The translations under genes and the position numbers were made by a program. The notes under the pieces are model-generated. The model saw nothing but the letters and a program-made list of their open reading frames with translations. It searched no databases and was not told the origin of the DNA. Shown here piece after piece: positions 1 through 62,160 of a stretch of 64,000 nt of DNA. Origin of the DNA: Marsupella aquatica (Eukaryota > Plantae > Marchantiophyta); assembly GCA_973895155.1 (NCBI GenBank), contig OZ316898.1, forward strand, positions 9,886,286-9,950,285, in the 5' to 3' direction. How positions within the stretch are numbered: the first letter of the stretch is position 1; each line of letters starts with the position of its first letter.

Positions 1-1243
1 TAAAAATTGGTGGAGGACTAAAGATAGGACAAGAGGAGGACATTTGAACACGGAGATGGTTTTCAGGCCGCAAGACATCCGCCGTGTCTTCATTATTCTA
101 CAGGGTATATGACACTGCCAAAGTGCCAAACTACGTACACTCCAAATTAATGCGGATTGTTTACAACTCAGGTTCCACCCAGGCGCGACTCGGACTGCCA
201 TACGAGTTTGTACAATACAGGTCTTCCTTCGTTACACCACTGATACGGAATACGGAGGTACGAACCGGGGGCGGTAGAACGCGGGATGCCGGAATGCCGG
301 TTGCAGCGTGAAGAAGGGGTCGTTTCTATTTCTTTATTATTGTTTTCATGACTGACACAATCGACGGCGAGGAAGTAGAAGGTGCCGGTGTGGAGGGATC
401 TCGAGCCGTCAATTTCGAGTTCGTTAACTGCAGTTAGTTTCCTGTTTCCCCAAACGCGGAAATGAAAATCTCTGTTCGGGCCTGTATTCTGCAGTCCCTA
501 GCGTCCCGAACTCAGGCTGGCGGTAATTCTCCGAGAATTATTGGTTCTAATAATAGGGTGTCTCAAATCTTTCCTTTTTGCCTCAACAACAACTTCCCCA
601 AAAACATGGTACCCAAACTCTACCGTAGTCGTCATTAGGTTCGCAGTGAAAATAATTAAATCCAGAAAATTGGACGGCCAGCGCACAAATTTGTGACTGC
701 ATACGTGTCAGGCCGGGAAATTATTTTTTACAGTCCGTGAAACAGTTCAATTTTTTTTACCAGTCCCGTTTCACCCACTTTTACTGGGAATTATTTAAAT
801 GTGGGACTCATTCGGCCCGGGTACTCTTGGACATTTTTCCCCGTCATTGAAACACGCGACATGAAATTTGGCACCATTTACGACCGCGATGTGCAAGGCA
901 ATTCACGGAGCACACATTCATGGCTCACAAGAAGACATTCATGATTCACAGGCCCACACGTAGACAGATCCAATGTTTCATGGAGAATGCAGGAGTGTTA
1001 TTCAGATGTTGAAAGCCAAATCATCCACAAGCGAATGGAGGCCTACTTCATTGACAAATTCAATGAATCGTGGAAGATTAAATCCAAACAAAATTTGACA
1101 AAATCACAGAATTGAGTGTGTACACACTTAAAGAAGAGCATACAGGCAAAACGCCCTTAAGTGCCTTCGAGCTTCTATCGATAAAGTTACTACGGCTCAT
1201 CAACTACACTGTAAACTACTTGGAATGCTCTAATCTCTCTAAA

Positions 1244-1924
1244 CTACTTAGAACGCTGCGGTCGTTTGGCAAGTGTTTTGGTTCGCGGGGCTTGTCCATA
1301 GCGCCGTCTAATACTCGCCCGAGCTTCTTCAAGCATCGCAGCCTCCTCCCGTTGTAAACGCCTGTCAAAGTTTGTCAAAGCATTGTCGAAGACGCGACGA
1401 CCATGTGTGCCAACTTCATCTTGTACAGCAGCGCTGGCGCGAGGTGATTCCGCATTGTCGGGAGGAGGCATTGCCTCCCTTCGCAATTGGTTGGGCGGAC
1501 GGTTATCTGAAGTGAAATGCTTTGGATCCAAGTCGTATTGGTCCTGTGGAATGGATGAAAGTTGGAAGAAAATGTCGGCAGGAACCTGCACTGCAATTGC
1601 ATACACATCCACTCCAACACATTTGAACAGAAGCTCCTTGCCAAAGCAAGTCCTAAAAGGCTCCTTTGATGCGTTGGTCCAATTGCTAACATTGGTGCAA
1701 TAGAGTGTCTGATAATGCATACGTTGGGGTCCATGAGCTGGACTTGAAGGATCCTCGGGCTTGGGCAAGAAGAGTGACTCGCACAACATTGTATCATAGT
1801 TCACAGGACATGGCAGCAAGTGAGAACGGTTGTAGTCCACCGGTGTCAAGCTTGAATCCGCGTTCGACATGGAGCTCCTTACACAAGTCCCACACAATGA
1901 ATCAGAAACAATCCCCAAATCCAC
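1244..1924 (-). CDS. hypothetical protein (cargo ORF or terminal exon inside the pogo-like element)
   Basis: 226-codon open frame with CxxC near the N-end and a charged/basic C-terminus. No recognisable family, and the start is uncertain (non-ATG in the track). Confidence 0.3.
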   Translation of the reverse strand: MDLGIVSDSLCGTCVRSSMSNADSSLTPVDYNRSHLLPCPVNYDTMLCESLFLPKPEDPSSPAHGPQRMHYQTLYCTNVSNWTNASKEPFRTCFGKELLFKCVGVDVYAIAVQVPADIFFQLSSIPQDQYDLDPKHFTSDNRPPNQLRREAMPPPDNAESPRASAAVQDEVGTHGRRVFDNALTNFDRRLQREEAAMLEEARASIRRRYGQAPRTKTLAKRPQRSK

Positions 1925-2774
1925 ACAAAAGGAGCTGCGGCGCCAGAGCGAAGTCGATTAGGCACAATGCAAGACACCAGAATGAGTTAGTCCTACCAGG
2001 CAAGCCAAACTTTATCCCGAATCCAGTAAAATCGACCCGTTGTGTCTTTAGTGCCGGTTACGCTCCTCACACTTCGTCATTAAGACATTTTGAGACGACA
2101 CAAGCAAAGTTTGTACTGGCCAAAGTAAATCAAGAATGTATGTACCTCCAAGTGGGTGTAGATGTTGACGTCTAACGTCCAATTTCGCTCCTTGCAAGTG
2201 TACTTGATTGGCACTTGTGGGATTCAAACCCAGACTATTAGCCTCAACTCCAATTAGTCATTCATTGAGCACATACGAGGAGAAAAAAACCTTTGACATC
2301 CTTCAGTTAATCTTGCATTCCAAAATGTCTCCTTGCGGACAAACTACAGGACTACAGAATACAAACGGCAAGTGCTAATCTGTAACTAACTACCGCAAAC
2401 AATTCAGCCTCCTGACCATCCCCAAACAAAATCGTGCCGTCTAGATTGGCATCACAATCCAAGCTGCAAGAGCTTCAGCCCTTTCTCTCAGGTGTCTGCA
2501 TATGGAGTTGTAGCATAGGGATCCGTAAGGTATGTTTGAAAGTCTGTAGGACCACTATTAACGACCTGTGTGAAATCAAACAATCGATCATCCGAGATGT
2601 CACCGATCATCGCTAACTCGTTCAAATTTGGTAAGCTTCTACCACCAGCACAACTCTAAACAACTTGGTTCAAATCCAAGTCTCCATCCCACTCCTGCAT
2701 GAGTACAGCTCCAGGACACGGTTCTGGCTCCAAAGAGGTGTCTCCTCCGGCAGTCCAATTGTTAAACCTCCCTC

Positions 2775-3025
2775 CTAAACACTGAAAGCTTCCTCCTGAA
2801 ACTCTGCAGTCCAAGCTCGCAACAAGCCACACTTGGTCCATCCTTTCAACAACATATCATTCAAAGCAGAAATATCTGTAAATGCTTTGTACAAAAATTC
2901 CACTGCTTTCACTCGGAATGTGCATATTGCCAAGTCCAATCTAGATGACTGAGGGATGATCCCAGATGAGAATTGATTCGCTATCATCCTGGTGGCCCAC
3001 ACATGGTATTGCTTTTGAAAACTGA
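2775..3025 (-). pseudogene. C-terminal fragment of a pogo/Tigger (DDE_1)-type transposase
   Basis: FQKQYHVW...RLDL...AVEFLYKAF...MLLKGWTKCGLLRAW resembles the post-catalytic helices of pogo-family transposases. The catalytic part is missing and is replaced by unrelated DNA from about 3030. Confidence 0.55.
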
Positions 3026-5699
3026 TCCAATTTCTCATTCACTTGTCATCTACCATTTAACCTTTTTGTCAAACAATTAGTGATGACCTGTACGATTACT
3101 CGAGACAGTGATCTAGAACTATCTTAGTTTGATCCTCCGCCTGTTACTTGAATTGAATGTCAATTTCCCTTTCCCCTTTCAGTTAATGTTTCTTCATAGA
3201 GGATTTCCAAACCCATTGTAGAAAGTTCTTCAGACACTGACTCTTCTTCTTCCTCTCTAATAATTCTCACCCAACTCTCAATCAGGGCTTTACATTCATT
3301 CGGGGCATTTTGTAGCCCAAATGGGATGTGTTCCAATTTAAACGACCAATCAGAGGTAGTTAATTCCATGTTACCTACTCTGGGTCTCACTCAGAATTTG
3401 CCTCTTATCCATTACTCAACATTTCACTTTGGCAAGGATTCCTTTAACAATTTGTAATCTCAATCACCACATGCCATACTATTCTGATATTTCCTTTTAC
3501 AGGTTCCAACCAAATCCAAATGAATTCTCCATTGTCAAATTTTAATATTTCCAGCCATCTCTTTTTCAATATCAATTTCTTAGTCTTGATTCTAATGACA
3601 TACAGCAAATACAAGCTATGCAATCAAATGCTCCCTGAATTCCTACCAATAGGCCTTGATTGCATCTTTCATTCCATGAACACATCAATTTCTTTACATG
3701 GTTTTTCTTCCATGGGCTTCCATCTACCTTCAGATCTAGCAATCCGGCACTACCTCCTCCTGGGCTGCCTCTCGAGCTTCCTGATTCTGAAAGTTTCCAC
3801 AACAAAAGACCTCTCCCATTCCTACTCTGCTACCCTATATTTATGCTACAGGCAAGTTTGCCCAACTGACTCTAACAATTAGCAGTTGTAACTGTCAAAC
3901 TGCTTATTCAGTTTTTCTAACCGCTTCATTCTACTAAAGGCATAGGTTAATCGTTACTTGTCACAGTAACTATTAATTGTTACTCGCTACTGGATCGTGC
4001 ATCTCTTAACTGGTTGTCTTTCGGTTAATCGTTCTTCGGAACGATCAGTCGAAAGTTCGTCCTTTGGCTTGGTGGCTCCAATGTTAAGCACTTGAATGGC
4101 TACCTCCCCCGGTTCTACTGGTGTTTCACTGACTCTTGCTTCTGATCACCGGTATGTGGGGTGAGTCCTCATTCTTTGGAATCCCAGTATCTGTTGAGTA
4201 CTCTTGCTGCGGTTCTATGCAATTCTCACTACCCAGAAGTCATTCATTACACGATGACAGTCTCTCTCCTGGGTTCCAAGTTGCTTGTGAAATTCATGAC
4301 CAGGCACTCCAAACAATTGACAGCCAGCTTCTTCCCATACTTGATACACAACAGTGTTGATTTGCACACAGAAATTGTACAGGTGTTGGCCTGATCCAAC
4401 CGTTTTACAAAAATGGTTGATTCGCTTCCGATTCGACGACCCTGCATCCTGGTGTTCTCTGTTCATTCTAGCCCTGCGAGCATTTGGACCTAAAGTGCAT
4501 ATTTTCCCATCTTCCAAGGGAATATCACATCCTTCATAAACTAGCTCGCTACCATGCATGCCCCAAATAGCTTCAATGGTTACTCCAATCAGACAGAGGA
4601 CTCCAGATTGCTCCATCTCCGTAAAGTTGTTGCTATATCACAAAAACTGAACCTCGACTAGAAAAATGAAGTTCGTCTAGAGGTTTTTAGGGTTAACATT
4701 GTGGAGGCTTTAAAGTCTTGATTTCTACTTAACTATAACTCAACTATTAGCTTAATTGCTACTAATCTTAACTGGCTAAAATGTAACATTTCAGGTCTTC
4801 AACTCCCGCTTCAGCTCCAAATTCAACCAATTCACATCGACGATCAAAATGAGCAGCCCCGACAATCGCGAACCTTCCATTCGGCAACAATCTCACTCCC
4901 GCTGCTCGCGAAATCTCCAAACAAACCCTATCGACGCGCCAAACCGCAAAAACTCCCAGGAATCCATCGCTGTCATGAACACAACATTCATCGGTCCCTC
5001 TACCGTGAACACGAAGAGAAACTTAGATGGCGCCGCGAACAAAGGTTTAGGGCAGGCAAATGCAAAAACACTGATATATCGATACTAGGATCATCGACGG
5101 CTGGGAAAAAATTGCCCATAGGATCGCGGCAGGTGGAAACACCTTAAAAATAATGTTTCGCGGTCGGTGACCGCGACCCTAATGTCGACTACGGTACTAG
5201 TTTCAATCAGGGTCAGGAGTTTGGGTGCCATTTTTCCCATTAATTTCAAGGTTTAAGATGCCCTAAAATAAAATTACTTTCAAAGCAAAGAACAATTCTG
5301 ATTTGGGATGATGGTGCTTACCTTAGTGCAGTCCAGCAATTTTTTGGTGGCCAAAATTAGCTAGATTTCACACTCACTATGAAAGTGTTGGTCATTTTTG
5401 GCTACAACTCTCCAGATTTTTCTTGTGCACTAACCAGTTTTGCATCTAGTCCCAAAGCCCAATAGCCCAATGTAACTATTATCCTTAATCTATGGATAAT
5501 TGATGGCGAATGGGAATACTAGGGAATGATTATTGTTAGCATCACATTTGTCACCCTACAGAAAAAGAAAAAACTGCAAAATTAAACTTGGAGAAACATC
5601 AAAACTTAAGCTGATGCCATTCATATACAGGATCCCAATAACAAAGCAGCCTAATAAAGGGGTGAAGGAAAGGGAAGAGGCCTGAGCAAAACCAATGAG

Positions 5700-10005: not shown

Positions 10006-11233
10006 GCCATCGCTGAATGGGTCCACATTGATTTTGTGAGAAAATTTAATCTAAACAATACAAACTGTAAAATTATCCTACTTGTCCAACACAACATGAC
10101 TATCAGCTTCCCTTCCTAATCAAACTTCTCTCTTCTCTAAGCTTAAACTCTTCCCTTCTCCATTTGGTGAATAGCTGTGTCAAGGTGATGAGGCTATTAA
10201 CCTTTAATTCAAAACTTGCCAAAGTCGGATTGCAATGAAATCTCAAGTATTTCCAATTATTTGAAAGTACATTGACAAATTGGGTGACACATCTTCTACA
10301 AACATGACTCATGATTAGCTACTAGAAAGCTTAGGGTTTGTAGTTGAGAAAAGCAAGGAGAAAAGCAGACTTCTCAATTAGCCAAGGGGTCCACGAAACT
10401 AATTCTATTTTAAATTACTTGAACCCCATATATTCTTCACTATTTTAAATTTCAAGTTAATTGAAGCCCCCTATATAATTTTAACATTTCTTTCTCTTGA
10501 TTCCCTCCCAGCCCCAAGTGGAGTCATCTACCACAACTGGATTCAACTACCACATTGTAAACAGTGCTGCAGCGTAAATAAAAAATTGATTATACATTTG
10601 AAGTATGAATCTTTATGACTCTCCAGTTTGGCCGATTGGGGCTACATGTGACTCAAATTCACCCCGCTATTGTGACATTCCTTTCTTGTATCATTGTATA
10701 ATTTCTTATAGAATTATTTTTATATAAAATAATGGAAATGAATTGTATGACTAATTACATGTCTTGGATGGGCTTTTGCCCTCTGTCCGGCTTTGCCCCT
10801 CTCTCGCTCTCGTAGAGGGGGGTGGACGATCCCTTTCGTAGATAAATATAAAAAAACATTCATACTCATATGCTTTGAAATTAGTCTTTTTTTTCAAATA
10901 TTTACGTGGAAGCGAAACTTGTAATTGAAGATGCCATCCCGTATCTGTGTCCTCACTCCAGCCGTAAGGTCTCCTTCAACTTATTTTTTTATTTCTTGGG
11001 TCTCCAATAGGGCGTCTCAAAATTAAGTTATTTAAAGAGCGGTTTGGACGTCCGACTGCAAAAAGGGGTTACCGAAAGTCAGGCCGCGTCACGAGTGTCG
11101 GGCACAGTGTCCAGGGGGTACTTAAAATTGAGTGGTGCTGCGGCCGCAGGTGTGGGTAGCGTACCTTGGGTTAAGACTCCCCTAAACTGCCGACCTAGGC
11201 CTGTCAATACAGAGGGCTCTTTTGAACTGCGCC

Positions 11234-11302
11234 ATTTTTGCCAGTCTCATTTTTGAACTCGTTTTTGCCAGTCTCGTTTTTGAACTCGTTTTTGCCAGTT
11301 TC
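11234..11302. repeat. 27-bp tandem repeat (~2.5 copies), subterminal in the Harbinger element
   Basis: TTTTTGCCAGTCTC(A/G)TTTTTGAACTCG repeated. Confidence 0.85.
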
Positions 11303-11486
11303 AAATCGCGTGTTCCCCCTCTCAGTTTGCCAACCAAATTGTGACGCAATTTTGATTCTCGTCTTCTTCTTAACGTGGGCGCGCATCATGGACAATCGTC
11401 AGTCATGTGCTGAGGGTGGCCAAATTGGAACATCGCAGTCACCATTCCTTGTTCCTGATTCACAACAAACTTAAGCTCAGGAAACG

Positions 11487-12757
11487 ATGGCGCCCCCATC
11501 CGCGCATCAGAACCAGTGTGGAGACAATCAGAAACTCAGGCCAGAGCATCTGCTTAAGATCGTCGAATGGCTTGAAGATCCTGATAATTTTGCTATGCTG
11601 AATGGGTCAAGTCGTCGTCTGGCAGTTGGGGTAAGACATCCCAACAAAAAGACTGTCTTCAAGCTGATGTTAATGATCTTACACTCCAACGGATTTCCGC
11701 GATTTGTAACCACAGGGGAGAACTTGGGGAAACGATTCAATCGTTACGTAAAGAAATACAAGGAGGCCTTGGCAATTAAATCTGATTCAGGTGAAGGGGT
11801 GACCTTGGGAGAGCTACGTGCGGGAATCACACTGGAGGATAAGCTTGAAAAGATCTGCCCTCACTTTGATCGTATGCATGCTCTATATGGAGAGCGTGCC
11901 AATGTTCAACCTCCAAGCACGGGAACAGCAGGCTTACCGGGAGTGCCTGAGCTTTACATCCACCCATCCGATGATGAGGATGAATCTGCCAAAAATGATG
12001 AGCATATAGGTATGTTTACTGTCCAAGAATGTTGTTGTTTTGGGTATTTCTTGATGAGCAAGAAGCGTGTCATTTACAATGGCGTAAAAATGGATGCCTT
12101 TATTGTGCAGGAGAGCCTGATTCCCAATTTGATTTCACATCGGCTTTTGAGGTTGAGTCTGAACATCTGCACTCACGACCAGAACCGGACATTAGCCAGG
12201 CCACTGAAGAGGCTCACCCAGCTGCCTTTGGGCCATGCCAATCAGAGCAAACCACTAAACAGCCACCTGCAGTGCCAACAGCCAATTCGGAAATTCCAGG
12301 GTCGGATGGTGGTCCTGTTCCAAATCCCACTGCACAACGGAACACTTCTGCCTCAAGGAGACCGGGTAAGAGGCCTGCCAATTCGCAAGCAACTTCAAGG
12401 CCTAATTTGGCTGAATTATATGCAGACAAGATAGCAGAGAAGAACTCATATCGGCAACATATGATTACAGTGAAGGATAAGTGGAGAACTGAAGAACTTG
12501 CTGATAGGCGAGAGGCCAGGGAGATTGTAGCACTTCAGACCCTGAAGAGAGATCGCATCCAAAGAAGAGCAGATGAGAAACGGGCTAGAGCGGACCATTT
12601 ACACCAATTGGCTATGCTGCAAACCCAACAGGCCAACTTCATGTTAACTGAACTTTTAAAGTCCAATAGGAGTCGAGAAGAGATCAGAGACCTGATGAGT
12701 TTAATTCCTGGAGATCCAACTGCGACCAACACTCGTGACACTGGAGATGTGTTGTAG
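11487..12757 (+). CDS. Harbinger ORF2, Myb/SANT-like DNA-binding protein (2 exons, 389 aa)
   Basis: Exons 11487-12009 and 12111-12757 are joined by a GT..AG intron (12010-12110) that restores one frame. N-terminal helical domain ends in LEKICPHFDRMHALYGERANVQP (Harbinger ORF2-like), followed by a low-complexity linker and C-terminal coiled coil. Confidence 0.8.
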
Positions 12758-13559
12758 GAAGAACTGAAGATTGGGTGAGGCTGAGATGCAGTTTGGGCAC
12801 AGATTATGTCAATGTACTCTATGAATAGTAATCAGCATTAGGCCTCGAATGTAGAGTTCGTGTTAGTAGCATAGGCTACTTTAATTCCAGACCAATGCCA
12901 ATTTTGAAGGCGCCTGTGCAATTTTGCTGATTAATGTGAAGCATTCACAGTCATTGTACCTTGCGCTGTTGCATTAAGTTGACTACTTGAACTTTGCCAT
13001 ACTCTGTGTGCTGTCCTGTACACCTTTGTATGATGTGCCTCAATTGACATTGAGTTTATTCACAAAGTACTTCAACAATCGGCTGTCCCCAAATGCAGAC
13101 ACTAGAAGCCAAATGCGAGTCCATTCATGGTACAATCAGTGCTCTCTGATAAATGTTGGCAAAAATGCTGCTTGCATGAAGGCCCTTTATTAAATACTCC
13201 ATGTCTTTGCTCACGGCTGAACACTGGCGAGAACCATCAAAACTTGTATGACAAACTATATCCTAACCTGGATTGAAGTGGGAGGTCTTATATATCTGTC
13301 TAGTATGCATAGGTCTGTGCTGCCCTATCTGTATATGAAATATGAATACTCCTAAACAGAATGTTGGGAACTGAATGGTCCTAAGTAAACTTCAAATACC
13401 ATTCAGGCACAACCGGGCTCAACCTGCACAAGGCCAGAAGGCTCGAACAGTCAGAAATTCACATTGTTACAACATATCATGTAACAAAACAGGGGCACCA
13501 CTTCCATAATAAACCAAGTATTGGAGGGTATAAAGGTCGCAGTATGTCTTCCCCATACC

Positions 13560-15063
13560 TCATTCAGAGAACAAAAAACCCCCAGGTCTACGATGAAGTT
13601 CGAGAGCCTCATCCATGACCCTCACTAGCAGAGCATTGCCCACAGCAGTAACTCCACGCCTAGAAACATGTTGAGGGTCTGGACCCCTCCCCTCTGGTTC
13701 CGCTTCTGCTTGTGGACCTTCCTCTGCTGTAATGTCAATTTCTGCGTCGTCACTACTGGTCCATTCATCATTTTGGCTCAAGACATAGTTGTGGAGTTTT
13801 CCACAAACCGCGACCCATCTCACCATCCATGCACTGTCCTTCTTTTCATTTAGCTGAACTCTGACTTCTTTCAAAGAATGCCAACGAGATTTTAAAACCC
13901 CAATGTAATGTTCATTTGTGACACGAGCTTTAGCAACACATGTATTGAAGTCTTCTTTGTCAGACACAAGGTCTGCCCTCTTAAAAGCACAAACAAGATG
14001 AGGCAACGCTTGATAACCAGAATCCCCAAGCAAGTATTGGTCTTCTTAAAAAATGTGGGTACTTCCAACACCAGAGCAATAACCCCACAGGGGTGATTTC
14101 CTCAAACATGTGAGGTCGGAGCAGGAACCAGGCATTCCTGCAAAACAAATACAGAGCACAATTTACACTACAACCTTATAAACCCGAAGTCCTAATTAAT
14201 AATACATGTAATAACAAAGTGGAAGTACTTACCTGTGAACATGAAGAGAATCTTCCGTCTGTGGTCACAAATGACTTGAACATTCACGGAATACCTGCAT
14301 TTTCGATCATAGTAGCACTCTCCATGGTGGTGTGGTCGCTGAGTCAGTGGTAAGAGTGATCCATCTATGAGGCCCAAACATCCACGAAAGCCAAGTTTGC
14401 CAAATGCTTCCAGGATCTCTACACGGTCCCTCCTTGTTGGCCATTGAATCTGGTCTTTCAGTGCATCCTCAAGTGCAAGAAATGCACCAAAGTTCCACTG
14501 CTGACGCCCCAGGTTGGGATAAGGTGATTCAGGCAAGCACCATTGCCATCATGCCCAAGACGGTCGAGACAGACAGCCAGCTGCCTCACAATAGGTGTCT
14601 GCAAATGTCTAGACTCATTCTTGAAGATTGGGTGAGGCTCTATCAATTCGAGGAGGTGGAAAAAGGACCTCTTGTCCATCCTTGTCATCTGTCTAAACAA
14701 TCGATCAGGCAAGTTGTGAAAAAACTGTGTTGCAAACTCATTTGACTTTACACTTATGTGACGAGGAACTAAGTAGCGAGTGTTATACATCAAAAAATAA
14801 AGCTCAGAAAAGTCAGCTACATTTTGTGCCTCTTCACAGTCATCTTCTTCGTCAGAGTCAGAGGAATCATCCACATTCGCTCCTGACCCACTGCTGCTTG
14901 AATACTGAGGAGGGTTGATGCAATCAAAGCGCTCGAGTGACCTCAAAGAGCTGTCACTACTTCCACCATCGGAATCGCTCCCAGAGCTATGCAACATGAT
15001 GTTTAATTGCACTTTTTGCTTCACCAGTCTCAAGTGCTTCTGGCGATCAGATACTCGAGGCAT
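13560..15063 (-). pseudogene. Harbinger/HARBI1-like DDE transposase, disrupted
   Basis: FRQMTRMDKRSFFHLL helix, then LIDGS (D), YYDRK.RYSVNVQVICD, GMPGSCSD, LLGDSGY (D), ARVTNEHYIGVLKSRW (E). Intron 14138-14232; frameshift at ~14481; in-frame TAA at 14046-14048. Confidence 0.9.
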
Positions 15064-15300
15064 GATGCTGACAATCCTGGAGACAAGACAGTTGTATGTC
15101 ATAGAGGACATACTTTACAACACAACACATTCATGCTAGCAACCATCTAAATTCGGAAGGTAATTAAAGCTCAAAAATGCACATGACCCACATTCACAAC
15201 AAAGCAGCAAAGAAATGTTGGAAAATTTCAATTTCATTTAAAGGCCTCAAACATTACATACTATGTAACTACATACTACATAGATATGATACTAGTACAT

Positions 15301-15933
15301 TTAATCCTCTAAGTCTGTGCCCTGCAAGGCCACAATAAGATCAGCCAAGATCTTCTTTGCACTTTTAGGTTTCTGTGGGGTGCGAGAAGTCGCTGCCTTG
15401 GCAGGAGTGACCTGAGTAGGACTTGCTGGTGTCTTGTGCCTGTACTGCACAGGACTCTGACAGATATCATCAAGGAGCGAAACTCTCTGGATGTGCAACT
15501 CCAGATCCTTCACGGATATGGTAACATGCAATCTGGGGCATTTTTGCACAATTGCTTGGATTGTCCCCATCTGAATGTGTTCAGACATCTTTGAAAATTT
15601 GAGTGTAGAGGAATTGAGTAGAATCGATGCACTATCCCATATTTGAGCTCGCAATGGCTTGCAAGCAGCATGGACGGCATCAAACAAAATCAATTGGAAC
15701 CTGAATTTATGGACTCCTGGCAGGATATGGCCACATCGGGGTCCAAATTCCAAGGATTTTCCACAAGGAACACCAACAGCAGTATCTAGATACAGGCAGG
15801 ATAAATAAGTGAATTTCCTAGGGTAGGGATTTCGGGCAACATAGTTCCCAACCCAAACATTAGCTCTAAAATATTCAACTTTCCCTGAAACCCTGTTCTC
15901 CTCGATGTCTGTGAGTGAAGTCCATTCAGCCAT
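15301..15933 (-). CDS. RPA1 C-terminal (zinc-ribbon OB-fold)-like protein, ~210 aa, third gene of the Harbinger element
   Basis: FTYLSC...PCGKSL...RCGH...KFRFQLILFD...AQIWDSASILLNSSTLKF parallels the RPA70 DBD-C pattern YxAC..CxKK...C..C...YxLxxxxxD....xFDxxAExLLG. ATG at 15933 follows a TTCCTCCAG acceptor. The frame is open, with a basic C-tail. Confidence 0.6.
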   Translation of the reverse strand: MAEWTSLTDIEENRVSGKVEYFRANVWVGNYVARNPYPRKFTYLSCLYLDTAVGVPCGKSLEFGPRCGHILPGVHKFRFQLILFDAVHAACKPLRAQIWDSASILLNSSTLKFSKMSEHIQMGTIQAIVQKCPRLHVTISVKDLELHIQRVSLLDDICQSPVQYRHKTPASPTQVTPAKAATSRTPQKPKSAKKILADLIVALQGTDLED

Positions 15934-16289
15934 TGCCTGGAGGAACAAAAGGAGAGTGGACATTGAGCAGAGCATGACAGACATTTGAATACACTAAGCA
16001 GAACAGAGTAGAGCATTCAAGTATGTGGAGAATCAAACAGCATGCGCAACATAATGCACAGTAGAAGCAACTGTAGAACAAGGGAGAACTTGGGTAAAAA
16101 ATGGCAAGAAGAACTGCACACCACAATGTCGTTGTCAAAGCTAGCTTGCAACTCGCGCTTCACCAAAGCACTGAAGCCTCTCGCTTCACAGGAACCTAAA
16201 TGTCGTTGCTAAAGAAACCTTCACCGCACGATGCAACATGGACCTTCACGAACAGGACGCAGGACGCAGCAATCACCTGCCGACGCAGC

Positions 16290-16715
16290 CTCAACCTTCA
16301 CGCAGCCTTGACGTTCAGAGCGAGCTTCAGAGCATTTCAGAGCAGCATCGGGGACCTTCAAAGCGCAATTTTTGATTCACGAGGGTCACAGTAGCATCGG
16401 GCAGCCTTGTTGTTCAGAGCACTATGCAACTTGAGCAGCATCGACGACCTTCAGAGCACTATGCAGGTTGAGCAGCTAGCATCGACGACCTTCACGCAGC
16501 CTTGACGTTCAGAGCGAGCTTCAATGCCAATCAGAGCAGCATCGACGACCTTCAAAGGCGCAACCAGCATTCACAAAGCTCACAACAGCGTCGGGCAGCC
16601 TTGACATTCAGAGCACTATGCAGCTTGAGCAGCATCGACAACCTTCACGAGGCTCACAGCAGCATCGGGCATCGACAACATTCAGAGCATTAGGCAGCTT
16701 GGACGACAAGCTTCG
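16290..16715. repeat. mosaic subterminal repeat block of the Harbinger element
   Basis: Interleaved copies of AGCAGCATCGACGACCTTCA (about 5) and GCAGCCTTGACGTTCAGAGC (about 4). Confidence 0.8.
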
Positions 16716-18084
16716 CACAACTCTCAAGCTGCAGCGATGCTGCAAACCACAGTCACGTCCGGTAACCTCAGGCTGGCCTGTCCCGGTCGCGGTCGCTGGT
16801 CTGTCCCGGTCCCGGCAGTAGGTGCAGACTCTAAAACGGCTGACCAACCAGAAAGGGCCGCGGGCCGTCGGACTGAACCGCGGTCAGGCAAATCGGGCCA
16901 AAAAAGTTAATTTTGAGACGCCCTAATGGAATCTTATTAGATTTAGCTGACGTCGTTGCTCACCTGGTAGCGCTTTTCGGTGACCAAAAAAATCCTCAAA
17001 TTTCCACAAATTTTGTTTTACATCATTTCCCTTTGGCAGAATTGTCAAAACTTTCACAAAACTCTGCTGTATATCTGAGTTACTGGCGAAAGCCATTTGA
17101 CAGTTGTGTGATCCTTCAAAATCACATTCCAACTCAACTTACCTCTGGGGGGCTTCATAAGCCTGTGGGTGTGTTTTCATCTAAGCAAAGTGGGGGCCTT
17201 GATGTGTAGATCCTTTTTGGTCTGGCCTAGATTTTTGGTCTGGCCTAGAGTTACTAGGCTAGATTCAGGGTCTGGCAAAGTGGGGGCTTTGATGGGGGCC
17301 AGACCCTGAATCAAAGCTCTTGCTTGGTCCATTGTTTTAGACTATGTCTTGAGGTGGTCCAAGGTTTTGACAAAAAGGGTCTACACATCAACAAAAATAG
17401 GACACACAAGGGCCCCCCTAGCAGGTGACTAGAATCAGTAATGGTCTTGCCTGAATCTGTGGTCCAGTTCGTGCAAAGTGAAGTGTGGCCTGTTCCCACA
17501 CCTCCAATGGCTAGGATTGCATGTCAGTCACAGTCAAGAAAAAAACTGTCATTGAGTTCTTGTAAAGCCACAACCACATCAGTCATTCATGTTCATTCCA
17601 ACGTGAGTTATCCCATAGTAGGATCAGTAATTACATTGCTGATACATGCTCTTTACCCTAAAGACAACTGTGCTCTTTACCCTATGACACCTTGCCATTG
17701 GGATTTCTCGTGGGCTTCATGACAACTGTTGGAATTGTTGGGGGGGGGGGGGGGGAGGAGGAGGGAATACGGGGATAGATTCTACTACGGGCAGGCAAGG
17801 GAACTGGGTTCTCATCAAGTGCTTTTGAATTCATTTTCAAAATTTCAAAATTTTGAAAGGGAACGAGATGGTGCCCCAAAAGTTTATTCCACAAGAGCGT
17901 AGACACCCCAAGAGTTTTTTTCACAAGAGGTTACATTTCTAGTTTACTACACTTGTTTATGTTATGTTTTTTACTCAGAAGAAACTCATCACCACAAGGA
18001 AAGAATGAAGTGGATGGCCTGCATGATGGTTGGAGACTGCCACATCTTCAGAGTACAACCTGGTTTACTTGTCCCTGATAACAG

Positions 18085-26300: not shown

Positions 26301-27455
26301 GATAACCTCTACAGCATTGTGCAGGCCAATAGTTGACAAACATCCACCATTACAATCCGGGAGCTCAGAATCACCTATAAAAATATGCGGAAATAGATAT
26401 GAAGCCAACAATGGCTCGAGCCAGGACCAATCGCCGGACTTTGGGTGTTCCCCACAGAGGATGTTTCATTCGTCTCAAGGTCGCTCCAGCCAATAGAGAG
26501 ATTAACCCACATCGGAACATAACAATCTCTGAGGAAGGAATCGAGCGCACTGCCGGATCACCACATAGCAAAGACACCAAGCTCCATTAGTCAGGGCTCT
26601 TGTTTCTGTCAGTCTTTGCTGTCGTGTTGGTCCCAGATGAGTTCTTTACAAAGATCGTCACCAGGGACCTCCGCAGCAGTATAGAAGACAACTAGGAATC
26701 CATGTTTCCATATTTGGCTCCTATTTGCGGAAAATATACATCTTGTGAAGCGGGTCCTAGCTTGAACATCATCAAAGCCAGAATTTGGAGATTCTAGGTA
26801 TTCATACCATATTCCTCTGTAATTCATCCTCCGAGATCGTTTAAACAAGTGTATATTTAAAGGATTCTCTAAAGTCTGTCCCGATCAGTAGTGGCATCGT
26901 TTTAGAGAATTGAACTGTGCCCACTTTACACCATCGAGACTGTCTTGAATGGTCATAAATCAAGAACTCACTAGTTATGCTCACGAAAATTATGCTTGAA
27001 AAATGGCACTAGGACCGCTGAGAAATTTCCAGTTGCACAGGTCATTTTACATAAGATTTCAGGAATTGTTGATATGGTAAACAAAAACCTGTGAGGAGCT
27101 TGACGAAAAGGCCCATTAGGCTATATGACGCAGACGAAATGGCCATGCACGCGGATCCAGAGTATTTGGATCCCCCCCAAATCCAACTCCACATTCTAAT
27201 CCATTTCATCAACCTGGATTGGGAACTTCCGTCTGTAAACCCTTTGTCGAGGGCATCGAATTGTTTGCTACTCTCCACGTCACGATATATCGCATCAGTA
27301 GGCTTTGACTCGTCTTCATAATTTCGTTCGCTTGGTTCCACATATCCTAGTTCTACTGATTCAAGATCTTTCCTCGTCGAGAAATCTCTCTTCACCTCCC
27401 GTAGCCCGCGTCCGCGCAATAGAAAGCTCTCTAGATCCATATCTCTGTGTTCCAT
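23320..27455 (-). CDS. EamA/DMT-family (SLC35G-like) membrane transporter, 9 coding exons, ~390 aa
   Basis: Exons 27089-27455, 26375-26549, 26068-26183, 25661-25720, 25321-25450, 25047-25110, 24506-24577, 24231-24296, 23320-23442 are all GT-AG with consistent phases. Motifs EIVMFRC, RAIVG, LPLRDATVLNFTTPVFT..LA..FLNE, FLTRALQLEKA, two 5-TM repeats. The true start could be further upstream. Confidence 0.9.
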
Positions 27456-30284
27456 CTCGCCGAACGATTTGACCGGCTGGGAGACGCTTTCTCCCTCTGC
27501 TTCTTCTAAACCCTTACGAACATTCCCATAAGAAACTCCCGCGTGATCCCCAATTGCCAATAATACCAAGCTACCTCGAATCAAAGAATTATATTTCTAA
27601 TACCTGGCTCCAATTGAGGTCCCAGTGCCACCCGCAAGCAGCGATCCCTTCCACAATCAATGAAATCCAGACACCCATCTTTGGGCGGGCGTTGGGCTGA
27701 AGTCGACTGGAGGACCAAAGACGATTTTCACTATTTTGAGCTGCAGTGAGAAATGGGCTCACTAGTATTCAAGGCCTGGAATTCCTCGGCAGGTCAACCC
27801 TCCTGGACAATTTTGTTGGTCCATCCACTGTCGGTTTCCACGCCCACGCTGAGCACCGACAGAACTCCGTGCGCAGGGGATAAACCAACTCCCTGCAATT
27901 TCTTATACCACTGCAGTCTTTCAACCTGTGCAAAATCCAAGAAGCAGAATTGGGAACCTCCTCCTCCTCTCTTTCAAGTCCGACCTTCTTCAAGAGAAAC
28001 AGGTTGTTCACATGCGGTCTTCGGCGGGAGGTCCTTAGGAAAAGACCCTCCTCACTCTCCCACAGATTGTGGCCAAAACCCGAAGATCCACCAATGTCTC
28101 ATTAATGCCCTCTTCGATAGACAGAAATCCCATCCATCTCGAATGTGTGCCATTTAATTTTCGCAATCACCCTCACAGAGAATGTGAACCACCCGTCCCA
28201 GTGCAAGACTGCTACCACCCCTTCTGACCGCTTCTGATAATTGGGTCCAAGAGACTCCCAACTTCCCGAGTCACTCGGCAGGGCAGCCTACAAGCAAAAT
28301 GGATAATTCCAGCCCAGACCGATCGGAACCAATCAGAAGTAGACCAAAGTAAGAATTGAAGGCCAAATTCTTTAGTAAACGGTCATCGGTGGAAGGAAGC
28401 TGCAGAGAAACGACGGAACACAGCCAATCATTCGCTGGGGAAAACAAATTGTCGTTCAAGCTTCTCATTCCTCATTATTCTCATTCTTCAGTCGGGCAAG
28501 GGACAAGAAAACTAGAGTCATCGTAACAATCGGTCGCGCATGCTTGTCATTTCAAGGAAGTCAGAGTTTCCATTATTGCCTGCCTATCTACTCTCACGTT
28601 TTACTCGCATGAATTCTACCTTTGAATCGTGCCCGACATTTTCGTTTGTTGTCAAACCCATGTACCTCGCGCGACGTTCCAGAGAAAGAAGACATTTTGC
28701 TGAAAGTAGAGGATGCCTTCGAGAGCCTGTGTATGACAGCCACCTTAAGCAGATCACCCTCCACCAGAGAGGGCTTTCAGTAAAGTATAATCGTAGTCAA
28801 TTTCGGGTCCGCTGACACGCCAGGTTTTTTTTAATGACGCAGTATAAGTAACTGAGGCAAATTCGTTGTGCTGACTTCGATTGACCCTCACAATCTGTTT
28901 GCTGTTCGTAAAGTACTCTCGTATTCAGCTGTTTTCCCCTTTTGTCGTTCTACTGTAGAGAAAAAGATTCATGAAACAGGAAACATTTCATAGGATCGCA
29001 TTTAGAGAAAAAGATTCGTGCACCAGGAAATTGATTGCAATTCGTCTCCGACTCCAGTCTTACATGAATCAAAGCTGTGTCTTTTCTGGTGACGATATCT
29101 CAACAGTGATGAATTCTTTGCTCAGACGAGAATGAGCATCCTGGTGACCTCCTTCGAGTCATCAAAGATCGTGACCGTTGTTTTGTTTTGTGTTGTTTCT
29201 AATTTTGGCTTTTATGCCGTTGTATTCTGTTTCTTCTTGTGATTTATGAAGTATATTGGTAAGAGCTATTGATCAGCAAGTCATGTTCCCTGGTGAAAAC
29301 TGAAAACCCTTCGACAGGTTGAGAATTCCATAACATAATTGAATCGCTTAAACAACCTGCATCAGAGAAGTGCGATCCCTGTCGATAATCTGATCTCGAA
29401 ATTCTTAAATAATCTTCACTGATGAAGTTTGAGAGCACGGCTTCGATAAATCCTCTCGACAACTTTCGTCTCTGGAGTCGAGGGCCGGATTTTAGGAGCA
29501 GGATTTTATTGATACCAAACGAACGAGATAGCGTACATATTCTAGACAAGTAACATTGTACCAATACGGCTCCGAGCAAAATCACGGTCTTATAGCTTCA
29601 CCAATCTCATGGTCTTATCAGCACTGTCTTGGAACGAGTAATTCAAGTTCCCAAGTAGGAGAAAAACCTCCAGCACCGCAACAGCAGGACGAAGGGTATG
29701 AACTTGTAGAGAACGATTGCCAGGAGTTGAAGGGTCGAAGGATAGATCACAGCAATCCTACAAGAAAGGCACTCTCCGAAGTCTTATCTCTCATCGAGTT
29801 CCACACCCGAAAATAGAAGTACGAGAACTTTTTGTTGCCAAGCGATATTGCCAGAAGAATGAAAGTTTTCGTACACTAAATTCACTAGTGGAGGTACAAG
29901 CAGATTGTGTGTCCAACAAGAAATCTAAGTAGATTGGACGTCAGTTCCTTGCAACACTTAGGGTTATATTTCTTGAACTGTTAGGAGAGTTCTCTGAGTT
30001 CAATTCCATCTTGGGACCTCCAATCCCCCCTACGTTCCAAAATTTGTCTTCGAGTACCAGACTCTACTCGCCATCACTCACTCGCTTAACGCATGGTTTC
30101 GTCTCGCTTTTCTTCCGGAGGGTGAAGAATTTTGGGGTTGGGAGATTTAGAAGTCAATGCATGTTCTTACCGTCGTGACGATCATGTTAAAAATCGGCGC
30201 TTTCGACATCTGGATCTGTAAAGCATGTTTTCCAGCACATCTAGATCTGGAGATCGGTTCCTCTTGGAAACCTATGAAATCCTG

Positions 30285-30380
30285 CAGTCAATAGTCTTTG
30301 ATTTCCAAAGAGCAGCTTCAGACTCCACACTGCTGTCAACAGTCTTTGATTTCCAAAGAGAAGTTTCAGACTCCACACTG
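30285..30380. repeat. 45-bp tandem duplication
   Basis: GTCAA(T/C)AGTCTTTGATTTCCAAAGAG(C/A)AG(C/T)TTCAGACTCCACACTG x2. Confidence 0.9.
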
Positions 30381-32220
30381 GTAAGGAAAAACTGTAATGA
30401 CGAACTAACTTTGAACCAGAACGTCTGTCATGTGCCAAAAACAAGATTTTTTAAAAGTAAGAACGCAGAACATGACTAACACCACTGCAGAAGAATTTCC
30501 AGCGACTGAATTATTTATGAGCAACGTACTGGGTCACAAGCGGATGTTGTTATGCAATGAGATCTTTAACAAACCTGCACCAGGGAATAATAGAACTTGG
30601 GTGAACATAGTACATAGGCAGTTTGGAGTAGATAGGCGGGCAATAATAGAACTTGGGAGAACAGAACGAGGCGTTCGAGGAGATTGGCTTCGAATTTAAC
30701 ATTTAAATAGCTTGCCGGCCCAAGCACAGCTAGAGAAGTGCTGTCATTTCAGAAAGCATCAAGTGATGTCGATCTGTCCCAGTCAGTCAGAGTTCCAAGT
30801 CTTTAGTCTAGGATTTTAATGAATTTGAACTTAGTTGAGCTACTAAATCAACTTTTTTCATATTTCATATTTTTGCCTTTTTTCTCGGTCAACAGCTTTT
30901 CCTCGCTGCCTCTAACGGTCAGGATGTTCCATGCGCTGGGGAGCAATATTATAGTGGGTAATAGGAGTGTTCCAATAACTTAAGCTTTTTGTTGCAGGTC
31001 TTTCTGGTGGAGATACCAAATGAATCCTTCTATTCATTCTTTGGCCTGAACTTGAATGCAAAAGATCCCCATTTCTTGTTACGCCAGTCAACTTTTCCAT
31101 CCCGCAGTCTTTTAATCGTCTATATTTTACACAGGCATAATCAATTCAATCGAAGGGACACTCTGCTGCCGATGTTTGTGACAAGTTCTTCAAACTCAGT
31201 CACAGACAACGTTGTTGGTGAACACAATCGTTTGACTTTCCTTATTTTAGTACGTACAGAAGACTCAAAAGACAACACAATGTTGGAGCAATTTCTGACA
31301 GAAGACTCAAAAGAGAAGACTGTTCAGGAACGTACATTCTGTGAGCATTTCTTCTGCCCATGATTTCTGTCCATTGCAGATCACCAAACATTTTGAAGTG
31401 AAGGGCGTTGGTAAACGAACTACTGTCAGTAGCTGAGACACCATGTTTCTTCTGTCCATGATTTCTGTCCGTGGCAGATCACGAAACATTAAGTGAACAG
31501 TGTTTGTAAAGAACTAGCTGAGACACCATGTCAGCCTTCAGTACGATTCGAAGAAGCCTGTGACCAGGCCCCTCCTCTTCCCTGTCGAATCGTCCTGAGC
31601 AGAGTGTCTTGGATTGGTGACAAGTTGGGCTTACCAAACGTTTCTACTGGACAGAGAGAGAGAACATTATTTCCTGAAGGAGAGCCATAAAAGTACAATG
31701 AGAGATAATTGGGCAAAGCTGAGAAAGGCATCATGAGCAGCCCCTCCTGATGAGCTTACACATCATTCCATAAGAGAGCCCTCCTGTTCATTGTGATTTC
31801 TTTTAAGTCTGTGTGATGTTGAGGAAAATTAGTTGGTGATGCCTTATTGAACTTTGTGGGTAAGGGTTAACTTCAACTTCTTTGTTCTTTCACTTTGAAC
31901 GCCTCCTTGGACTCTTGGGGGCATTTTTCAGAGCACTTATGTGAAGAACGGTGAAGGATGCAAACACGAGCCTCACTCAACTCTGTTGCGGGTTGGGAAG
32001 AGAAAGTGTACATAGAAGGAGCAAAACTCGCTAATATAAATGAGCAATTGGATTATCTTGGTAGGGAAAATCTATTCAGCCTGGGGCACTTGCATTGTTG
32101 CACAATACACAGTTGCTTTCTGATGTGCAATTACAGCCAGGTGATAAAGTGCTCAACAAGTTCAGGGAATTTCATTACCGGTATCACTAAATAATTTTCT
32201 CTTCATGGATCCATCCCTGG

Positions 32221-36500: not shown

Positions 36501-37511
36501 AATCATGTTTGGTTGCGCAATAGCTTATGAGTTTTGAAGGTCATGAGAAATCGAACTTTAGTCGATAAGTATAACGATTCAAATGTACATCACTACGGAA
36601 ACACTGAAAGTGCGGACGCCCTTCAAAAGCTGTTCAAAGCTCTTACCGAGAAATATCGAGGGCATAGCTCACCGCATCTCTCGCTGGGATTCGACCCCCT
36701 CTACTGATAATTTCATGCAGGTCTCCCTGCTCATACCAAGGATTATTTATTTGATTCTTTCCAATATGCAATCCCCGGCCATACTACTGGAGTACGTGTT
36801 ATCAGTGATCGCTAAAAATGAAACTTAGTATGTACAATCTGTCAACAAGCTGGCCGGCAATGCGCTTAATCACTCGAATTCGGTCTACTATATCCAAAAT
36901 TCGATGCATCAAGAAACACTCAGAAAGCTAGAGAACATTAAGATATACATTGCAGTACTGTACCTTAGGAAGATACTCCGTAACGATGACGCGGTTATTA
37001 TTTTTCGTAACAGCTCCAAGGAACTCAACAATATTTGGGTGTCGGAGACTTTGCAGCAACAAGAGCTGCATGTGGAACTCTTCTGTTGTCCAGGAATCAA
37101 AGCACATGTTACATCCCCAGTCAGTCAGCACTGCAGAGATAATGAACTGAGGAGAACCTTTTAGTGCAAGAGGCAGGAGCAAATCGCTGGGGGGAAACGG
37201 TCGACTGGATTGACCTTAGCGTTTCGCTCCAACAGCAACTCCACTAAGCCAAGGCTGCCCTCACTGGCTGCGAGATGCAGTGCTATGCGTCCATTGTAAT
37301 CCGAGGAGTCCACATCCAGACCTTCTTCGTCCAGGATTTGCCTGACGCCATCTACATCTCCCAAGCTGGCGAATTGTAACAAGCTCACAATCTTGTCGAC
37401 CGGGCTAGACTGCAGCGAAGCAGCTATCATGTCTTCCTGTGTCTTCATAATCCAACGCTTCACCATAATCTGCTGAAACTCTAGCTTGCGTTCGATCGCT
37501 GGAAGAAACAT
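33551..37511 (-). pseudogene. ankyrin-repeat Raf-like kinase (integrin-linked kinase / VIK-like) pseudogene
   Basis: Ankyrin exon (DYNGRIALHLAASEG..VELLL). Kinase exons LRHPNIVEFLGAVT..IVTEYLPK (36964-37082), GDLHE..YALDISR (36647-36726), GMNYLH..IVHRDLKPR (~36372-36434), VADFGLSK..TGGTGT, YRYMAPEV..KSVDVFSF, MFEG..RPEF, LLRQYWDKNPAVR. The last ankyrin and kinase N-lobe exons are absent and one acceptor reads TG. Confidence 0.85.
34055..34718. mobile_element. possible solo LTR in the last intron of the kinase pseudogene
   Basis: Ends TGTTACT...AGTAACA (7-bp inverted), flanks TTGTAT/TTGTAA, internal TATA-like run; no coding content. Confidence 0.35.
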
Positions 37512-38996
37512 CGAAGAGTAAGACTCGATGAAACCACAGTCAACTACTTCATGAAATGGGGAGTATTAACTGAGCAAAAGTCTTGAGAGCCAGCACCTCC
37601 ATCCGGAGCTCCATCATCCTAATCGAGTCCTCGTCCCGGTCCTCATTCATTCACAGGACCAACTATTGTGACCAGGATCAGTGCATAGATGATCACTATC
37701 CAAGCCTCAAATCACCGCTGCCACTATATTTCAAGGGGAAGCGTCAAGTCCTTGTAAATCAATTGGAAAAGTGACATGATGCCTCCCCTGTCCCCGTCCT
37801 GAACATGAATAAACAGGGGACACTTGTAATTCCAAAGCAAGAACAAGTAATGCAAGAGGATTACTTGTCAAACAGGGAAAAAATCATCAAATAAAGAAGA
37901 AGGTACAAAGCAATATTGCAATGAGCTTTACAACATGATTGAGGTCGGCAATACAAATTGAAGGACAAAGCCAACTCTTACTGCATTCCAAGGGGTACAC
38001 TTTTCTCCCACAATTTCAGGACAACATTCTGATTTCATGCAAGCCAGTACACACTACAGTTGAAAGGAATTTTGTTACCTAGAAAAAAAAAGGAATATAT
38101 AGCGATTGAAGTCATTCCAAAACAATGCATGCCTCCGCTGTTGCAAAAGCATAATTTTGGTTTTGAATTGAGCTGTTATAAACACAAACTTTTTGGTTTC
38201 CTGAGTTTAACAGTTTGATCATTTGAACATGCACTTCAGGTTGACTTAGTGAAGCCCAGATTTCGCCCATGCTGATGTCTATTGTTTGTTAGAGTAGTTT
38301 TTGTCTGTGTGGTTGTTAAAGTGTATCTAGTGATAGTTGAAATATCCTATGTTAATAGTGCATAGGATCACTTTAGTACACAGTTCAGGGTTGAAATTAG
38401 TGAAAGCCTGTCAAAAATGTACCTGGATTCGTTAGTGTGATGCCTTTTGGATGTTTCAGGTGTGGTCCCTCAATAGTTTGGAGTATCTACTGTACAGTCT
38501 GGGCACTTTCTTCAATCCTAACAGCAACATATTTCTTACTTAATTCTATGCCCGACTGTACATAAGGTATGGTCCACCTAACTACTATAGTGGATTATAG
38601 GATTGCAAAATAAATTATTAAAGCTCTTGTAACTAGATTTTTCAAAGTGCATAGAGAAAAGACACTTTGTTGGTAAGCACTCCTTATTGTCCCTGTATCA
38701 TATAATCCTAAAACCTAACCTTCTAAGATTCTATTTTTTATTCTTAAATCCGTTGAACAAGACTTTTTGTGTTGATTTTTCTGTATTTTAAGGAAGATAA
38801 TGTAGGACTTGGGAGCTCTTGACCAAAGACTATCTTAAGTTGTTTAATTCTTATTTGACATGGGCCTTTGATGAAACTAACCACTTTTGGTAGTCAAGTG
38901 GTCCCTTCCTCCCTTCTCAACATGCAATGAGCTATGGTCTCTATGTTTGTCTTGTCTCTAATTTTGCTTGATAGTTGATTCCTTTGTACTTGTATA

Positions 38997-41704: not shown

Positions 41705-43152
41705 GTATATATGGCCTCCAAAGTAAGGCAAGGATCGCATTTGGTTCCTGCCAGACTATGGATTCATTTAAGTGTTGCTTGTAGCTAGTCTAGATTGTAG
41801 AATGCTTTGACTGAGAATATTTCATTGCTCTACAACTGATCCGAATGCAACACAGTTGCTGCTGCTGCTTTGTAGTAACACAAAATTTGAGACTTTTAAT
41901 TTAAGAAAATAACCATTTTGATAACATTCAAACAAAGAGGCTATTGTGACATACAACAAACACTAGATAGAGAGGGCAGAAGCCCTAGAGCTCCAACTAC
42001 AACATGGTTGATGGTATAGAATGTTCGAGAATCTGACTACACACTATCAAGAAACCAGAACAGTGCCCAACAACTTCAAACAATTTTTAGATTGCAAGAG
42101 AGATATCAAAATTGTCAGGCACAATGTGCAATGCTTATACAAAATCCTGCATGAGAAACCCACGCAAGGTTCAAGGCAATACCTACTAGCTCCCATGTTT
42201 TCTCCATCTCGCAGCCCTTCCCTCCATGGTCGCAAATGGAATTACACTTCCTTGCACCCCTACAGCCTTTAACTAATTGGCTCTCAAATTGTAGAGAGCT
42301 ATCAAAATTCAGATCTGGACAATAATTGCACTTGGAAAATGTGAAAGAAATATGATACCAACCTGCAAGTTTGATTGAAGTAGAATGTGCTCTCTTTGTT
42401 CATAAGTTATAAAGTGAAGAAGTGCCAGTGGTGTGCAACAAGAAAAATGGTTGGCACTTGTAGCGCACCTAAAAAACTTCAGTGGAGCTCCTTCAAATCA
42501 TCCACTCAAGCCCTTATGGGACACCGGGCAGGAGTATATGCAAACTGATCACACTTACAGGTGAATATGGTAGCATACGGATGATTCTATGGAGCTTATG
42601 AACTCCAAATAAAATGGATTCACATCAACAATTGAAATGCATAGACACTCTACTGAATGACAACCTCATGAACTCCAACTGCTGAATCGCCACAACACAA
42701 ACCCTTGATGTTCCCGTTTTGAAAAAGCACCCCTGCCACTTGCAAATCTTGGAGTAGATTGCGCTTGCCACACACAAATCAGAGCACAAATCTGGCCAGG
42801 GCACAAAATGCTGCCACTTGCAAACACTCACATACACCCCAGAAAAATGGCAGCACCCCAAAATTAACAGAAAATTTGTCTGCAATGTGAACACTTGAAT
42901 CTTGACAGGCGGCCCGCAAACACAAAGAAACCCCAATGGAGCAGCAAACTGAGGGTTTAGGGCAGGTCGGGGGCAGGTCAATATGAAACCCTTGATAAAC
43001 CCTAACGCAAATCATTGACAGTCACAGAAGATTCATTGCAGGATCAGGATAGCTGGAAGTACATTTATCTATATAAATATTTTTCCTGGTTAATGGCTGC
43101 AAACCAAGCTACTACTATGGAGTAAGTGGCAGATCAGCTGAATGTGGAGGCA

Positions 43153-62094: not shown

Positions 62095-62160
62095 CATAAT
62101 GGACAACCAATAGCCCCAATCTTGAGCGCACCAGTTACATGGACTCCTCCTTCAGATGGC

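Follow-up and report, generated by a model that had tools for sequence, protein, structure and literature searches.

A third gene with a predicted RPA70C-type zinc OB fold in a Pangu/Harbinger2-like transposon of the liverwort Marsupella aquatica

The element and its genes

The window, i.e. the whole stretch of 64,000 nucleotides from Marsupella aquatica contig OZ316898.1 that we analysed, contains plant-type host genes and a transposon extending from 11009 to 16924 (5,916 bp). Three genes lie inside one pair of terminal inverted repeats (TIRs), as the initial annotation of this DNA had proposed: a transposase gene, a convergent partner gene (ORF1) and an intact open reading frame of 210 aa (ORF3). 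The features of the element and its flanks are the following:

11006..11008, plus strand: left target-site duplication AAT, read from the flank
11009..11026, plus strand: left TIR, 18 bp perfect, starting AG, from the inverted-repeat search
11487..12757, plus strand: ORF1, partner gene convergent to the transposase, two predicted exons, about 389 aa
13560..15063, minus strand: DDE_Tnp_4 transposase (Pfam) with D/D/E motifs present and a predicted GT-AG intron at 14232-14138
15301..15933, minus strand: ORF3, intact open reading frame of 210 aa from ATG to stop
15937..15958, minus strand: pyrimidine tract and CAG, three bases ahead of the ORF3 ATG, read from the sequence
16285..16721, no strand: degenerate direct repeats (families D5, D7 and D12; unit length about 47-79 nt) in the stretch from ORF3 to the right TIR
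16907..16924, minus strand: right TIR, 18 bp perfect, from the inverted-repeat search
16925..16927, plus strand: right target-site duplication AAT, read from the flank

The largest well-matched inverted repeat around ORF3 pairs 11003-11033 with 16900-16930. Within it, the TIRs start with AG, are perfect over 18 bp at both ends and agree at 23 of the first 25 positions, and AAT flanks them on either side; the perfect TIRs described earlier were thus recovered. Other insertion sites are represented by three contigs of run X1, which match the window through the A at 16925 and part from it at 16926, which fits a duplication of the type 5'-ANT-3' and not TWA. Reading the TIR from GGGCG with a TAA duplication was rejected, since the left flank would then be ATA and the right flank TAA, whereas AAT matches AAT. 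Around the duplication, the flanks (11003-11008 and 16925-16930) are nearly palindromic, a hint at a longer target preference. In runs X1-X3 the element is covered at several times the depth of its flanks, although depth as such gives no copy number. Beyond the right end, an 819-nt contig (run X5, record 27) matches the flank at 16931-17196 with 312 nt upstream that are unlike the element, and may represent an empty site. Many other contigs start at 17466 with unrelated upstream parts, where another repeat family begins.

Two pieces of the transposase score above the Pfam cut-off for DDE_Tnp_4, and the D, D and E catalytic motifs align with those of a Calypogeia transposase (P0135). The gene is broken in the window by a frameshift near 14477, which corresponds to a 16-nt deletion behind this position relative to other copies, and by an in-frame stop at 14046-14048. 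The copy in the window is non-autonomous and appears to be in drift. Removal of a predicted GT-AG intron (12010-12110) restores the frame of ORF1, for which no Pfam match was found, Myb/SANT included. Its nearest look-alikes in the Atlas are unnamed plant and basidiomycete clusters (0.92 and 0.91); Myb/SANT-like rows appear at 0.79 only and serve as leads, and a single-sequence structure model reached a pLDDT of 38. Where Harbingers usually have a transposase and a Myb/SANT protein, the element has a transposase gene, defective in this copy, and a partner gene without a Pfam match to Myb/SANT. No Rep or helicase families were detected by Pfam among the ORFs of the element. By its anatomy alone the element is better filed as a Pangu/Harbinger2-like PHIS than as a canonical PIF/Harbinger. 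The earlier assignment to Harbinger therefore holds as far as the DDE_Tnp_4 domain and the TIRs are concerned, whereas the AAT duplication, in place of TAA/TTA, fits Pangu/Harbinger2 and not canonical Harbinger.

ORF3 runs from 15933 to 15301 on the minus strand, upstream of the DDE_Tnp_4 transposase and co-oriented with it. Both its arrangement and all of its previously listed motifs were found again: Y43-x-x-C46, C57-G-K, C67-x-H69, F77-x-F-x-L-x-L-x-D85 and W99-D-x-A-x-x-L-L106. In 200 mononucleotide shuffles of the element, an ATG-initiated ORF of at least 210 aa did not arise once. A stop codon precedes the ATG by 60 codons, and the CAG just ahead of the ATG is, from its sequence, likely the splice acceptor of a 5'-UTR intron. 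The protein is predicted to consist of a zinc OB fold (about aa 1-156), a linker rich in S, T, P and K (about 159-190) and an amphipathic C-terminal helix (192-205).

Several further features were observed in the window. Host exons on the minus strand include one for an NAD-dependent epimerase like UDP-glucuronate decarboxylase, with a membrane anchor (50387-51172), one with ankyrin repeats (37161-37565) and one resembling a membrane protein (27042-27596). On the plus strand, 59059-63828 holds, in this order, a gag-protease frame like that of retrotransposons, a segment of a C5 cytosine methyltransferase (PF00145, E 2.7e-7) and the start of reverse-transcriptase-like sequence, with two in-frame stops. 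Methyltransferase-bearing retrotransposons have been described from algae. Inverted repeats of 27 nt (89%) delimit 621-5196, which may be another DNA transposon, the outer TA of the repeats being a potential duplication; inside it, on the minus strand, a 237-aa frame (1244-1957) has no Pfam match. Another pair of inverted repeats (26 nt, 92%, 2 kb apart) at 28568-30651 shows no clear duplication. Two direct repeats of about 270 nt (38997-39265 and 41368-41637), 2.37 kb from one another and 90-96% alike, are candidate LTRs of a short retro-element. Degenerate tandem repeats were seen at 51850-52774 (unit about 56 nt), 43152-43441 (55-74 nt) and 58073-58394 (62-80 nt).

Protein family and predicted fold of ORF3

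Searched alone, ORF3 had no Pfam match, no PDB sequence match and nothing usable in the Atlas, where SWIM rows at 0.78-0.79 were rejected as below lead level. A single-sequence step retained four relatives out of 105 candidates (37-58% identity), and a profile built from these extended the family to 126 clusters at E≤1e-3, of which 78 reach E≤1e-10. Its members include CAM6082296.1, CAM6099887.1, KAL3693906.1 and KAL3696492.1. For the alignment, 81 of 127 relatives were chosen for wide domain coverage, which together with ORF3 gave 82 rows. The zinc ligands are kept in nearly all rows that have a residue at the position: C46 in 72/74, C57 in 72/78, C67 in 78/81 and H69 in 75/77. Position 99 is F or W in 78 of the 82 rows, and R78 is kept in 63. 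ORF3 belongs to an unannotated family of zinc OB proteins with a Cys3His site, which are divergent and mostly missed by Pfam. Most relatives are 200-300 aa long; a search for longer or fused forms spanned 672-2000 aa and is weak, since it missed a known member of 675 aa.

Species names were attached to four of the 28 relatives looked up, all from liverworts (Calypogeia fissa and Riccia sorocarpa), and to five of the six transposase matches, likewise from these two species. Several OB paralogues with less than 50% identity to one another occur per genome. In a tree of 73 of the 82 rows (nine short rows omitted), the window protein and two Calypogeia proteins fall into one supported group, which has 23 members and leaves out the Riccia protein; being drawn with no outgroup, the tree indicates no origin. 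The Riccia-type OB branch (P0071, P0072, P0076, P0081, P0095 and P0110) has a different and longer C-terminal region, which is repeated in P0110.

The resemblance to the RPA1 zinc-OB domain, recognised before from motifs, became visible only with the family profile and a structure model, and there four approaches agree. The profile matched DBD-C of yeast Rpa1 (6i52_C, E 8.1e-5); the second PDB match, C18orf21 (E 0.008), was set aside for biased composition. Individual members match Pfam Rep_fac-A_C (6/82) or CDC24_OB3 (8/82) at E up to 0.1, and one Rep_fac-A_C match lies above the curated cut-off; it comes from P0075, which is itself an alignment row and has 155 columns aligned to the family. 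An AlphaFold2 model of ORF3 (pLDDT 88.3) found human RPA70C as its best Foldseek match (8rk2_A, E 1.4e-5), and the 18 matches at E up to 0.001 are chains of RPA70, telomere end-binding protein and Teb1. The combination of structure model, Foldseek and Rep_fac-A_C search that the initial annotation had suggested hence came out in favour of the resemblance. VIA-align gave Teb1 OB-C a Z of 14.1 (rmsd 2.6, 136 residues aligned), tied with RPA70C (13.6 and 13.3), and POT1C 10.5, with matches spanning model residues 1-156. The predicted fold of ORF3 is thus the C-terminal zinc OB fold of RPA70, with a putative Cys3His zinc ribbon formed by C46, C57, C67 and H69.

Counting along the profile alignment from residue 442, W99 sits on yeast F537 (human F532). 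F537 is a conserved DNA-contact aromatic of Rpa1 (PMC11848354). In human RPA70C the L45 loop carries Y581, R575, K577 and R586 (bioRxiv 10.1101/2020.09.04.283879). The corresponding region of the model is a two-residue turn between strands 134-142 and 145-153; in 52/73 rows of the family the beta4-beta5 turn has a short length of 11 residues (V137-H147), and it holds an aromatic residue in only 20/73, and the L45 loop with these four residues is therefore absent. On the model, then, half of the DNA cleft would be kept. The domain is not strongly basic, with 14-18 K+R and 12-17 D+E in six members.

These features bear on a reading in which the OB fold is an adaptor that binds the transposase or ORF1 in the transpososome, or the element ends or internal repeats, and not generic ssDNA. 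The top VIA-align matches include Teb1 OB-C and POT1C, domains that act largely in protein contacts, the L45 loop is missing, and internal repeats adjoin ORF3. In contrast, the wide retention of the F537-matching aromatic and of R78 is what would be expected of a nucleic-acid cleft, and the two-gene rule for Pangu given in PMC4482050 implies that a third subunit is not generally needed. We regard an adaptor as quite improbable.

The tethered C-terminal helix is likely an interaction helix. Of about 60 rows, 68-93% conserve its hydrophobic face (192, 196, 199, 200 and 203). This face could belong to a mimic of RPA70C in which the helix replaces RPA70 beside host RPA32/RPA14; such an alternative or decoy RPA would loosen silencing or redirect repair. 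Arabidopsis RPA2/ROR1 mutants release transcriptional silencing, which counts for a mimic, as do the conserved hydrophobic face and the reduced DNA cleft. The only part of RPA70 that is kept is moreover a trimer-core domain, since DBD-C, D and E make up the RPA trimerisation core (bioRxiv 10.1101/2020.09.04.283879). However, about 35 low-confidence model residues separate the helix from the OB fold, and the helix lies past the end of the structural match (about 156), so that its identity with the RPA helix is doubtful on the model. Its sequence also differs greatly among family members, where a fixed host partner would be expected to limit variation. A mimic is in our view unlikely, and we prefer to read ORF3 as a protein that handles ssDNA itself.

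ORF3 in related copies of the element

Runs under two organism labels gave contigs that cover the whole element including ORF3, although the best-matching run set may be the window's own source. Contigs with differing alleles on ORF3 numbered 23, 20 and 71 in runs X1, X3 and X4, respectively. A contig of 13,670 nt from run X1 is 16-19% diverged (81 of 423 bases differ in ORF1 and 62 of 399 in three transposase pieces) and is without about 310 bases of the transposase. It is collinear into ORF3, with the same depth of 16.4 at the joints and an offset of 2164 against 2155-2161 expected, and it ends within about 10 bases of the collinearity prediction; its identity within ORF3 is inferred from this depth and offset. 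ORF3 is not a recent one-off capture, because it is kept in related copies including this diverged one, and the earlier argument against a recent capture is supported to this extent.

Some copies of ORF3 carry frameshifting indels. The analysis of variants rests on 40 of 108 ORF3 variants, namely those listed, which comprise 13 silent and 27 replacement changes (pN/pS 0.62). They were split post hoc, by chosen thresholds, into three classes. Variants of minority subfamilies, seen in at least two runs, number 7 silent and 9 replacement among the 40 (pN/pS 0.38, p 0.05), those of the window's own branch 2 and 10, and those seen in a single run 4 and 8; the contrast between the window branch and the others among these 40 is not significant (p 0.27). 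One contig shows 8 silent changes among 11 differences (p 0.0006-0.008) together with a 1-base deletion. This fits ORF3 being under selection in active lineages and decaying in dead copies. Conservation at the protein level is stronger evidence than the variant counts, and the evidence for selection is modest. Retention of the ORF in related copies with dN/dS below 1, which had been named as a check, was thus found as regards retention; for its second half the evidence is modest, and the frameshifts and the pN/pS over all listed variants count against the helper role proposed below.

The window branch, with its 2 silent to 10 replacement changes among the listed variants, agrees better with old cargo, i.e. 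an OB gene of a liverwort host or borne by a Helitron that was picked up and carried with no role in transposition. Such an origin has precedents, since Helitrons repeatedly carry RPA domains (PMC11417382) and TIR elements are known to capture genes (PMC8903248). Genomic context is also in its favour. By accession adjacency in Calypogeia and Riccia, a small sample, none of four named OB proteins adjoins any of five named transposases; in Calypogeia, 377 accessions lie between the OB protein CAM6082296.1 and CAM6082673.1, the closest transposase on the same contig. Metagenome scans added no context: the 49 matches of a pattern scan included no relative, and none of the 23 loci of a motif scan had a transposase or ORF1 match, its one short and weak profile match being expected from the search pattern itself. 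The completeness of ORF3, with ATG, stop and likely 5'-UTR acceptor, its place in the copy diverged by 16-19% and the silent excess between subfamilies count against mere cargo. Furthermore, several paralogues of below 50% identity per genome and 126 clusters resemble a mobile gene family more than a conserved host gene. Old cargo thus appears rather unlikely, and the best reading of ORF3 is that of a long-held third transposon gene.

Possible role of ORF3 and comparison with known systems

With a probability of roughly 45%, we propose that ORF3 is the third gene of a multi-copy Pangu/Harbinger2-like element and encodes a stand-alone zinc OB protein of the RPA70C type, likely as a helper that handles ssDNA. 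Transposons of the cut-and-paste type multiply when the sister chromatid, which is the sole template in a haploid gametophyte, serves to repair the donor break. The transposase and ORF1 would excise the element as in other Harbingers, in which a Myb-like protein binds the transposase and the ends before excision (PMC9179366). The OB protein would then attach to the resected single strands of the donor break, and its C-terminal helix may hold it to itself or to a partner and thereby offset the reduced cleft. In favouring repair from the sister chromatid, it would restore the donor copy and raise the copy number.

An RPA-like gene is to be expected in a Helitron, which moves by rolling circle and makes ssDNA, but not in a cut-and-paste element. 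That a TIR/DDE element keeps such a gene suggests that the element acts on the way the host repairs the donor break, through which copies are gained, or on RPA-linked silencing. A wider idea, possible but doubtful, is that a bryophyte cut-and-paste lineage encodes a stand-alone RPA70C mimic that, either by coating the donor break or by taking over host RPA32/RPA14, would steer repair and help the element to evade silencing. If true, the 126 clusters would make up a family of SSB proteins carried by transposons, and the first one for a TIR/DDE element.

At the protein level, ORF3 shares with RPA70 DBD-C (Rep_fac-A_C; 8rk2, 1l1o, 4gnx, 6i52) and Teb1 OB-C (3u50) the OB fold with an inserted zinc ribbon, the beta-3 aromatic, the helix pair that follows it and a C-terminal helix. 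Its identity to RPA70 DBD-C is about 15%. The zinc site is Cys3His (C-x9/10-C-x9-C-x-H) instead of four Cys, with the His one place earlier than the fourth Cys, L45 is short where that of RPA70 DBD-C is long, and the C-terminal helix sits on a long linker. ORF3 is without the F, A and B domains of RPA70 and stands alone, unlike a multi-OB chain.

At the level of the element, DDE_Tnp_4, the convergent partner gene, short TIRs and a 3-bp duplication are shared with canonical PIF/Harbinger as described in PMC9179366, from which the element differs by AAT in place of TAA/TTA, a partner without a Pfam Myb/SANT match and the third gene. Pangu, which corresponds to Harbinger2 of Repbase according to Kojima (PMC12730594), is described with a 5'-ANT-3' duplication, two ORFs and TIRs that begin with AG or GG and are 11-40 bp long (Han et al., PMC4482050). 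The ANT duplication, the AG start of a TIR within this length range and DDE_Tnp_4 agree with these accounts, and so does ORF1, which like the second ORF of Pangu is without a recognised motif. The third gene sets the element apart, two ORFs being usual in Pangu, though not universal, as does its length (5.9 kb, where Pangu averages about 3.5 kb); no land plant is among the 15 hosts in the Pangu section of PMC4482050.

Precedents for PHIS with three genes are HarbingerS, with a SET domain, and PHISTA, with TET/JBP (PMC12730594). As in these, an extra gene is stably carried beside the transposase, and HarbingerS is related to Pangu/Harbinger2; their extra genes, however, are described as chromatin- or DNA-modifying enzymes, whereas ORF3 would encode a non-catalytic OB fold. 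In the literature searched, with Repbase Reports and subscription journals outside its scope, no report of a Harbinger or other TIR element with an RPA or OB-fold gene was found, and the main text of PMC3627910 contains no RPA70. Three-gene PHIS and RPA-bearing Helitrons are each known, and what may be new is their pairing, for which an earlier database description is possible. With the RPA genes of Helitrons (PMC11417382) ORF3 has in common that an RPA-like gene is borne by a transposon; yet Helitrons move by rolling circle through an ssDNA intermediate, and the present element is a TIR/DDE cut-and-paste transposon with a duplication and no Rep/helicase gene. In comparison with Pack-TYPE elements, which are non-autonomous and contain pieces of a closely similar host gene, the element family encodes its own transposase, and ORF3 is whole and only distantly similar to RPA70C.
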